A stretch of DNA of 64,000 nucleotides, taken from the NCBI GenBank assembly GCA_000004985.1, contig GG738910.1; one strand, written 5' to 3'. The notes under the pieces were generated by a model. It ran no database searches, had not been told where the DNA came from, and saw only the letters and a list, made by a program, of their open reading frames with translations. A program made the translations under genes and the position numbers. The first letter of the stretch is position 1, and each line of letters opens with the position of its first letter. This document shows positions 36,628-38,307 of the stretch, in pieces. This stretch comes from Naegleria gruberi. Lineage: Eukaryota.

Positions 36628-38307
36628 ATGTCTGTTCGTGAATTTTCTCCACTCTTCAGTTGGGGTTTTTCTCTTCGTCGTTCCAAGTGGTTGATTCCAC
36701 TCTTTAATAATAACGTCTTTAGTTTCGGTACAAGTGCTGTGAATGATGGACCATATGGATACAAAAAGAGTAACAATAACCGTAGAGAAAAATCAACTAG
36801 TACAATTAATCATAAGGAGTCACACACAATGCTCAAAACAAAAGTAGAAGGAAGTGATTTGTTTGAAACGTAGGTATCTTGTTTTCTTTTTTATTAATTA
36901 TGTAGTCCTATTCAAGTTGTGACTGAGATCGGTAACAATACCTGCTCTGTCAGAATTACTCACGAAGATAGTGAAGATATCAAACAAAAGGAATTAGAAC
37001 AAAGGAGAAGAGAACAAGAAGAAATTAAACGAAAGGAACTTGAAAGATACAGACAATTATCGGATGGAGCTATCATTGATTTGATTGAAGGTGGTAAGCT
37101 TGCCATTTACAACCTGGAAGATAAACTTGGTGACAAGAAACGTGCTGTAAAAATTCGTAGAATGTTCCTTGCATCAAAAATTAATCCACAAGATGAAAAT
37201 CTTCTTGATAACCTTCCATATGCTCATGATTTAAATTACGACCAAGTTTTTGGAGCTTGTTGTGAAAGCGTTGTCGGATATGTTCCATTGCCAGTCGGTA
37301 TTGTTGGTCCAATTATTATTGATGGAAAGCCATATCATATTCCAATGGCTACTGTTGAAGGATGTTTGGTTGCCAGTACTCACAGAGGTTGCAAGGCCCT
37401 TTCCAGTTCTTTTGAAGGAGGTGTAAACAGCGTCATTTTGAGCGACGGAATGACTAGAGGTCCAGTTGTTCAATTTGCCAACACAAAGAGATGTAACGAG
37501 CTTAAACAATTCATTGATAATCCAGAAAATTTCAAGGAATTATGTAGAGTTTTTAACAGTGATTCTCGTTTTGCTAGATTGTTGGAAGTTAAAGTTGGTA
37601 TTGCTGGTAGAAAGGCATTCTTGAGATTCAAGTGCCGAACTGGTGATGCTATGGGAATGAACATGATTTCAAAAGCAACACAAAAGGCTCTTAAATTCTT
37701 GAAGAATGAACACTTCCAAGATATGGACATTTTAAGTTTGAGTGGTAACTATTGTACAGATAAGAAGCCATCAGCAATGAATTGGATTGAAGGTAGAGGT
37801 AAATCCGTTGTTGTTGATGCTACCATTCCAAAGGATGTTGTGAAGAATGTTCTTAAGACTACAGTTGATGAAATTGTCAGTCTCAATATATCTAAGAATT
37901 TAATTGGTAGTGCTATGGCTGGTTCTGTTGGTGGTTTCAACGCTCATGCTGCCAATATCGTGACAGCAATCTTTTTGGCTACTGGTCAAGATGCTGCCCA
38001 AAATGTGGAAAGCTCGAATTGTATGACTATTATGGAAAAGACTGATAATGGTGATTTATATGTCTCTGTGACAATGCCATCTATTGAAGTAGGTACAGTT
38101 GGTGGTGGTACTCACTTGGATGCTCAAAAGACTTGTTTGAAGATTATTGGTGTTGCTGGTGCAAACCAAGAAAATCCAGGTCAAAATGCTCAAACCCTTG
38201 CCAAATGTGTTGCTAGTACTGTAATGGCTGGAGAACTTTCTCTCATGGCTGCTCTTGCTGCTGATCACTTGGTGTCTGCTCATATTGCTCACAACAGAAA
38301 GAAATAA
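36628..38307 (+). CDS. HMGR: HMG-CoA reductase, soluble form lacking membrane/sterol-sensing domain, 2 exons
   Basis: Exon 1 is 36628..36869 and exon 2 is 36906..38307. The 36-bp intron is GTAGGT..TGTAG, phase 2. The catalytic domain is complete: 'CCESVVGYVPLPVG', 'EGCLVASTHRGCKA', 'DAMGMNM', 'VGTVGGGT'. Only about 120 aa precede the catalytic core. The N-terminus 'MSVREFSPLFSWGFSLRRSKW' resembles a targeting presequence, and there are no multi-pass TM helices. Confidence 0.8.

Follow-up and report, generated by a model that had tools for sequence, protein, structure and literature searches.

We analysed a stretch of 64,000 nucleotides of Naegleria gruberi DNA (contig GG738910.1; this whole stretch is called the window below), which carries on its plus strand, at positions 36628-38307, a gene for HMG-CoA reductase (HMGR; HMG stands for 3-hydroxy-3-methylglutaryl). 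The predicted enzyme consists of three parts, namely a conserved N-terminal module of 38 residues, a variable, largely disordered linker of ~90 residues and a canonical class I catalytic domain. We consider it probable that the early mevalonate pathway of this organism is mitochondrial and that the module delivers the reductase to the organelle or tethers it there. The gene, its model, its annotation and the mitochondrial assignment of the protein are already public and are not new. The only new point, and the sole part that merits follow-up, is the deeply conserved module, no description of which was found in the searchable literature and which appears to be undescribed.

The protein begins with the sequence MSVREFSPLFSWGFSLRRSKW, of which aa 1-38 (MSVREFSPLFSWGFSLRRSKWLIPLFNNNVFSFGTSAV; positions 36628-36741, plus strand) constitute the module. 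For this analysis we defined a group of module-type HMGRs, with the N. gruberi protein as the reference, by the N-terminal pattern MSVRE..WGF..P..NN..G, a variable linker and the class I domain. Across 42 module-type proteins, the module equals the catalytic domain in conservation, with a mean majority-residue frequency of 0.72 in both and column entropies of 1.04 and 1.08, respectively; the corresponding values for the linker (aa 39-130) are 0.17 and 3.09. Positions M1, W12, G13, P24 and G34 of the module are invariant, and S2, R4, P8, F10, F14, L22, N28, N29 and A37 are nearly so. Its tryptic peptides are EFSPLFSWGFSLR and WLIPLFNNNVFSFGTSAVNDGPYGYK.

A motif pattern for the module was matched by 47 of the 120 best homologues, in most of them at the exact N-terminus, and a profile hidden Markov model (HMM) of the module recovered 52 full N-terminal copies among the fetched homologues. 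The carriers include Heterolobosea (three Naegleria species, Willaertia, Acrasis, Pharyngomonas and sp. BB2), the jakobid Andalucia godoyi, the malawimonad Gefionella okellyi, the apusomonad Thecamonas trahens and, within Amoebozoa, Cavostelium, Gocevia, Clastostelium, Soliformovum and the dictyostelid hmgA proteins. With the 47 N-terminal residues as query, HMMER was run exhaustively against 1.84 billion representative proteins and returned only the N-termini of HMGRs, plus two unrelated repeat proteins. The latter (P0124 and P0128) are of the WG-/FG-type, score through many weak repeats and were dismissed as chance matches. Word-indexed searches with the module by itself or with an alignment of 30 modules yielded almost nothing, probably because queries this short do not pass the word filter or reach a useful E-value. 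Among the fetched sequences, the module HMM had no match in HMGRs from animals, plants or fungi or in those of the transmembrane and presequence types; a similarity of the module with the plant N-terminus or with the animal sterol-sensing domain's first helix was discarded, as the HMM finds nothing there. Judged by these comparisons, the module is both conserved and specific to HMGRs.

A few peculiarities of individual homologues were noted along with the module. In one protein (P0118), part of the module's second half occurs a second time (IPLFDTDLFSA, aa 61-71). Genomic contigs from two relatives have an intron directly after the invariant Trp12 codon, i.e., within the module (3936-4005 in contig L001 and after 3204 in contig L002), where N. 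gruberi has none; the resulting 12-codon first exon was overlooked by gene callers, which led to truncated models (P0011 and P0019). Contig L001, of metagenomic origin, also encodes a thiolase (PF00108/PF02803; 2683-3627) 273 bp 5' of the HMGR gene (3900-5602) and on the same strand, so that two steps of the mevalonate pathway adjoin. Its HMGR (P0011) groups with that of Acrasis in our tree. HMGR has no thiolase neighbour in the N. gruberi window.

AlphaFold2, supplied with the alignment of the 42 sequences, modelled the catalytic domain confidently and left aa 1-98 unstructured (pLDDT ~30), for which reason we regard the module as behaving like a linear motif rather than a folded domain. The models gave no evidence that the module docks on the catalytic domain, nor did they provide a fold for structural searches; it is thus predicted to be a long linear motif without a fold of its own. 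The linker that follows (aa 39-130; 36742-37053, plus strand) is poorly conserved, houses the intron and is predicted to be disordered over aa 39-98. Its E/K/R-rich distal part (aa 101-131; 36964-37056; EDSEDIKQKELEQRRREQEEIKRKELERYRQ) was modelled as a single long helix with pLDDT of 72-91, which could keep the catalytic domain at a distance from the disordered linker as a rigid single-helix spacer.

The initial annotation had described the N-terminus as presequence-like, and several properties do speak for an ordinary cleavable mitochondrial presequence with no further role: the net positive charge, the abundance of Ser and Arg, the published predictions and proteome listing discussed below, and the precedent of a matrix HMGR in kinetoplastids (PMC5993337). 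The first 30 residues of the modules contain three to four Arg/Lys and none to two Asp/Glu, with Glu usually at position 5; in N. gruberi these are four Arg/Lys and a single Glu (E5, present in 74% of homologues). The helical hydrophobic moment of the module was no greater than that of shuffled sequences (z=-0.2) and did not set it apart from presequences. The Wimley-White interfacial free energy, taken for the best 29-residue window, did: it was -5.7±1.6 kcal/mol for the modules (n=36) versus +2.6±2.0 for the N-termini of presequence-type HMGRs (n=24) and +9.0 for the linkers. Six to eight of the 38 module residues are aromatic. Because both composition and interfacial free energy differ from those of the presequence-type N-termini, the module is physically unlike a standard presequence and resembles an interfacial membrane-binding peptide. 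Furthermore, five of its residues are invariant and the majority frequency of ~72% is maintained over Discoba, malawimonads, apusomonads and Amoebozoa, and dictyostelids keep the module behind an added hydrophobic segment. The reading of the initial annotation as a generic presequence is not supported, and we find it very improbable. A PTS2-like peroxisomal signal was rejected by eye, as no R/K-[LVIQ]-x5-[HQ]-[LAF] pattern is present.

Published evidence for the location of the enzyme comes from Horváthová et al. 2021 (Nat Commun, PMC8134430), who fractionated N. gruberi organelles and assigned 946 of 4198 detected proteins as putatively mitochondrial. The very protein encoded in the window (XP_002670914.1, MSVREFSPLF...) belongs to their mitochondrial cluster (Supplementary Data 2, sheet 1), with 19 unique peptides and 46.8% coverage. 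Its intensities over the three fractions, in the values of that table, are 23.2, 26.0 and 28.0, the densest fraction being the most mitochondria-enriched (PMC8134430). In the same table, the gradient profile of HMGR parallels those of acyl carrier protein and HslU, which are matrix markers. The in-silico mitochondrial scores reported there are 66 for TargetP, 95 for MultiLoc and 30 for PSORT II, the first two of which favour mitochondria. HMGR of Naegleria is therefore, per published co-fractionation, mitochondrion-associated, as the initial annotation had thought possible and had proposed to examine by targeting prediction. The mitochondrial list further includes HMG-CoA lyase as well as HMG-CoA synthase (PMC8134430), and the N-terminus of the synthase (MNKSRQSLRGLIKNHQSAKHFSTNISPQ...) resembles a classical presequence. 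As HMGR co-purifies with mitochondria and with these two enzymes, the early mevalonate pathway is likely mitochondrial. The list also holds farnesyl-diphosphate synthase of N. gruberi (XP_002682719.1; PMC8134430), whose N-terminus includes a hydrophobic segment (LLILGLGAALGFAV), so that association with mitochondria may extend to a later isoprenoid step.

To place the module-type proteins among other membrane-less HMGRs, a neighbour-joining tree of catalytic domains was used, with bootstrap values from a subset of 44 taxa. The initial annotation took soluble, possibly mitochondrial HMGRs to be known from only a few protist lineages, which the present data do not support: about 50 of the 120 best homologues share the membrane-less architecture and ~24 more have classical presequence-like N-termini, so that membrane-less HMGRs are common in protists. 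Naegleria falls into a heterolobosean-like clade (95% support with sp. BB2 left out), which is mainly of the module type, yet presequence-type members are nested inside it. Presequence-type P0032 is sister to module-type P0007/P0009/P0014 with a bootstrap of 100%, and presequence-type P0022 groups with the Acrasis group (79%). The protein P0050 (MKLKSLFPLFKKNFGKEFSNSLKP...) retains M1, L6, P8, L9, F10, F14, S19, L22 and P24 of the module, has lost W12-G13 and is otherwise presequence-like; judged by its sequence, it appears to be a module in decay towards a presequence.

In Amoebozoa, each type has a paralogue clade of its own, and the presequence-type dictyostelid proteins, by inference hmgB (HMGR2), group with the Acanthamoeba protein. 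Dictyostelid hmgA (HMGR1) is built like the Naegleria enzyme, with module (74 bits to the module HMM), linker and catalytic domain, but has ahead of the module a hydrophobic, transmembrane-like segment of ~25-40 residues, which is conserved in five dictyostelids and has no counterpart in Naegleria. The Dictyostelium compendium preprint gives HMGR2 and one HMG-CoA synthase as mitochondrial. In the supplement of the Andalucia paper, the jakobid HMGR is paired with an Acanthamoeba protein under the table heading 'Aca(MS+)', which we read as detection by mass spectrometry in the Acanthamoeba mitochondrial proteome. The HMGR of Acanthamoeba castellanii and probably Dictyostelium HMGR2/hmgB thus resemble the Naegleria enzyme in being membrane-less, of class I and reported as mitochondrial. 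They differ from it in their classical N-termini, which have few aromatics and almost no acidic residues, are unconserved and are not matched by the module HMM.

With the above in mind, the most likely arrangement in N. gruberi would be an early mevalonate pathway inside the mitochondrion, as in trypanosomatids, where HMGR would act in the matrix beside the presequence-bearing HMG-CoA synthase. The module, aromatic and basic, would deliver and/or tether the reductase; it is predicted to associate either with a membrane interface, by partitioning into it, or with a conserved receptor. The main rival places the enzyme outside the matrix: the module would be a peripheral membrane tether by which the catalytic domain is kept on the side facing the cytosol, at the mitochondrial outer membrane or at mitochondria-associated endoplasmic reticulum (ER), and the layout of anchor, linker and catalytic domain would copy that of ER-bound HMGRs. 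Such a surface tether agrees with the strongly favourable predicted interfacial partitioning, the aromatic content and the basic cluster of the module, and with a conservation that far exceeds the level of presequences. In dictyostelid hmgA, the hydrophobic segment and basic residues directly precede the module, which gives it a juxtamembrane-like place, and of the Dictyostelium paralogues only the presequence-type one is reported as mitochondrial. Moreover, presequence-type copies arose repeatedly within module-type clades, as if a presequence were required for entry into the matrix. Against a location on the surface, the classical presequence of HMG-CoA synthase and its place in the mitochondrial cluster imply that the substrate is probably made in the matrix, the reductase itself sediments like the matrix markers, TargetP and MultiLoc both call it mitochondrial, and no second N. 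gruberi HMGR was found among the best 120 homologues. On balance, we regard the surface location as unlikely and prefer the matrix for the Naegleria enzyme.

Several points weigh against this preference. An enzyme in the matrix, one on the outside of the organelle and one on tightly associated ER would look alike in co-fractionation. The strong conservation of the module is atypical for import presequences, and so are its acidic residue at position 5 and the lack of special helical amphipathicity (z about 0). The pLDDT of ~30 means that the AlphaFold model offers no structural clue to its role. The Dictyostelium compendium names only the presequence-type HMGR2 as mitochondrial and does not mention the other reductase, by inference the module-type hmgA. 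Finally, the tree is a simple neighbour-joining one, in which many sequences derive from metagenomes.

The gene model itself is simple. The coding sequence is made up of exon 1 (36628-36869, plus strand; aa 1-80 and two bases of codon 81) and exon 2 (36906-38307, with the TAA stop at 38305-38307), together 1644 nt for 547 aa. Before splicing these appear as two plus-strand open reading frames (ORFs) of 81 codons (36628-36873) and 462 codons (36919-38307), the unspliced reading meeting an in-frame TAG at 36871-36873. Excision of the 36-nt intron of the GT..AG type (36870-36905; GTAGGT...ATGTAG) joins both in frame. The intron and a protein of ~540 aa had been proposed by the initial annotation and are confirmed, at 547 aa, by the public model: from end to end, the spliced product shows 100% identity with the N. 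gruberi HMG-CoA reductase XP_002670914.1 / EFC38170.1 / UniProt D2VYB1. Orthologues of Naegleria fowleri (90% identity), N. lovaniensis (91%) and Willaertia magna (77%) align without a break across the splice junction.

No transmembrane helix or sterol-sensing domain is present, and the protein is truly membrane-less. The top 19-residue Kyte-Doolittle window within aa 1-130 reaches ~0.6, the threshold for a helix being a mean of 1.6 over 19 residues. The N-terminal 168 aa have no match to any Pfam family, and the sterol-sensing and membrane families PF12349 and PF02460 have no match in the protein. The full-length profile of membrane-type eukaryotic HMGRs, TIGR00920, is covered only at positions 369-870 and scores 651 bits, below its cut-off of 778. 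The absence of a membrane and sterol-sensing domain noted initially is borne out, and the non-membrane N-terminus, put at ~120 aa, is about 130 residues long.

Could the gene model be truncated, with missed 5' exons encoding a polytopic membrane domain? The only hint in this direction is that positions 36469-36627, read in frame with the HMGR ATG, translate into a hydrophobic sequence (...SIFLIGSFIAANGALRFAKKQLALVIWLVRCW...), yet without an ATG; it superficially resembles the hydrophobic extension ahead of the module in dictyostelid hmgA and is probably an effect of the T-rich 5' untranslated region (UTR). Four grounds stand against hidden 5' exons with transmembrane helices, a concern that had accompanied the initial annotation. 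Firstly, only 183 bp lie between the upstream gene and the ATG (intergenic region and 5' UTR, 36445-36627), which leaves no room for exons of a membrane domain; the nearest in-frame stop (36466-36468) lies 54 codons 5' of the ATG, with zero ATG codons between. Secondly, Met1 is invariant in 42 homologues, several of which are transcriptome ORFs marked complete by their source (including Pharyngomonas, Heterolobosea sp. BB2, Gefionella, Cavostelium, Gocevia, Clastostelium and Soliformovum), every one starting at Met1. Thirdly, the genomic contigs L001 and L002 of relatives have an in-frame stop two codons 5' of the Met1 of MSVREFTPLFSW, and the thiolase gene on L001 ends 273 bp before that Met1. 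Fourthly, the published N. gruberi protein is the identical one of 547 aa. Met1 of the module is the true start, and a truncated model, already close to refuted, has a negligible probability.

The class I catalytic region (aa 131-547; 37054-38304, plus strand) is matched by PF00368 over aa 161-545 (37144-38298; model positions 1-368 of 368) with 467 bits (cut-off 27; E=5e-140). TIGR00533, the equivalog domain of class I NADPH enzymes, scores 527 bits against a cut-off of 441.8 (model positions 5-402 of 402), and the class II model TIGR00532 scores 51 bits, below its cut-off of 260. PDB 1DQ8, the crystallised catalytic fragment of the human enzyme, gives an end-to-end alignment with residues 124-547 (E=4e-154), and E201 (CCESVVGY), K367 (TDKKP), D443 (GQDAAQ) and H540 (SAHIAHNR), invariant across the 42 homologues, match human E559, K691, D767 and H866. 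By profile and alignment the protein is a class I (NADPH) HMG-CoA reductase, predicted to make mevalonate from HMG-CoA, in keeping with its first annotation.

Human HMGCR (1DQ8) shares with the Naegleria enzyme the class I catalytic domain, the E/K/D/H residues and the logic of N-terminal element, linker and catalytic domain. Animal and fungal HMGRs have an eight-helix membrane domain and a sterol-sensing domain, whereas the Naegleria enzyme has neither. Position 546 of the latter is a Lys in place of human Ser872, the AMPK phosphorylation site (human HNRSK versus ...AHNRKK, 38296-38304), and the canonical inhibitory site is therefore missing, likewise in many protist homologues.

Plant HMGRs resemble the Naegleria protein in having a short N-terminal element, a variable linker and the class I catalytic domain. 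Their anchor consists of two membrane spans and is hydrophobic, with one to three segments over the hydropathy threshold, whereas the module has none and its HMM does not match plant sequences.

Trypanosomatid HMGR is located in the matrix (PMC5993337) and is similar to the Naegleria enzyme in lacking a membrane domain, in its mitochondrial association and in that HMG-CoA is made in the organelle. No kinetoplastid sequences were among the 120 best homologues. Kinetoplastid HMGRs comprise ~410-435 aa, in which a short presequence leads straight into the catalytic domain, and are not known to carry the 38-aa module or a 90-aa linker; the Naegleria protein, with 547 aa, a 38-aa module and a 92-aa linker, is unlike this layout.

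The window is nuclear DNA of N. gruberi, since the HMGR product is identical to the public protein of this species; it has 34% G+C and is gene-dense. HMGR of N. gruberi is apparently a single-copy gene. A further N. gruberi HMGR entry of 320 aa (P0133, XP_002668160.1), on a 2.5-kb contig, belongs to the same cluster at 90% identity and is probably a duplicate of allelic or assembly origin, not a paralogue. The upstream neighbour, which sets the 5' boundary of the HMGR gene, is an uninterrupted ORF of 972 aa (33526-36444, plus strand), visibly rich in Asn and Ser and without a Pfam match. Only 33 bp (33493-33525) separate its start from that of a 563-codon ORF on the minus strand (31801-33492), so that the divergent promoter region is extremely short. 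On the other side, the ~1.8 kb that follow the HMGR stop (38308-40143) have no ORF of at least 50 aa on either strand; this gap has 25-32% G+C, is more AT-rich and is unusual for so gene-dense a window. The next downstream ORF (40144-40665, 173 aa) has no Pfam family match. Neither tRNAs nor members of Rfam families were detected when the window was scanned.

Mitochondrial HMGR is still called unique to trypanosomatids in some papers (PMC5993337; Euglena preprint). Taken together, the enzymes of Naegleria and Acanthamoeba and HMGR2 of Dictyostelium indicate that mitochondrial membrane-less HMGR is widespread among protists. This bears on the cellular site of synthesis of sterol and isoprenoid precursors, on how the catabolism of leucine and fatty acids can supply sterol synthesis, and on statin targeting of the pathogen N. 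fowleri, which is killed by statins (PMC7560193) and whose enzyme is 90% identical.

We tentatively suggest that the module may be an ancient targeting or tethering element specific to HMGR. As it is common to Heterolobosea, Jakobida, Malawimonadida, Apusomonadida and Amoebozoa, it may date to the last eukaryotic common ancestor. If this is true, the ancestral eukaryotic HMGR would have been module-tethered and possibly mitochondrion-associated rather than polytopic in the ER and equipped with a sterol-sensing domain, and the membrane domain of animals and fungi, the membrane anchor of plants and the classical presequences would be later substitutes for the module. The module would in that case be a testable handle on the localisation of HMGR before the sterol-sensing membrane domain evolved.

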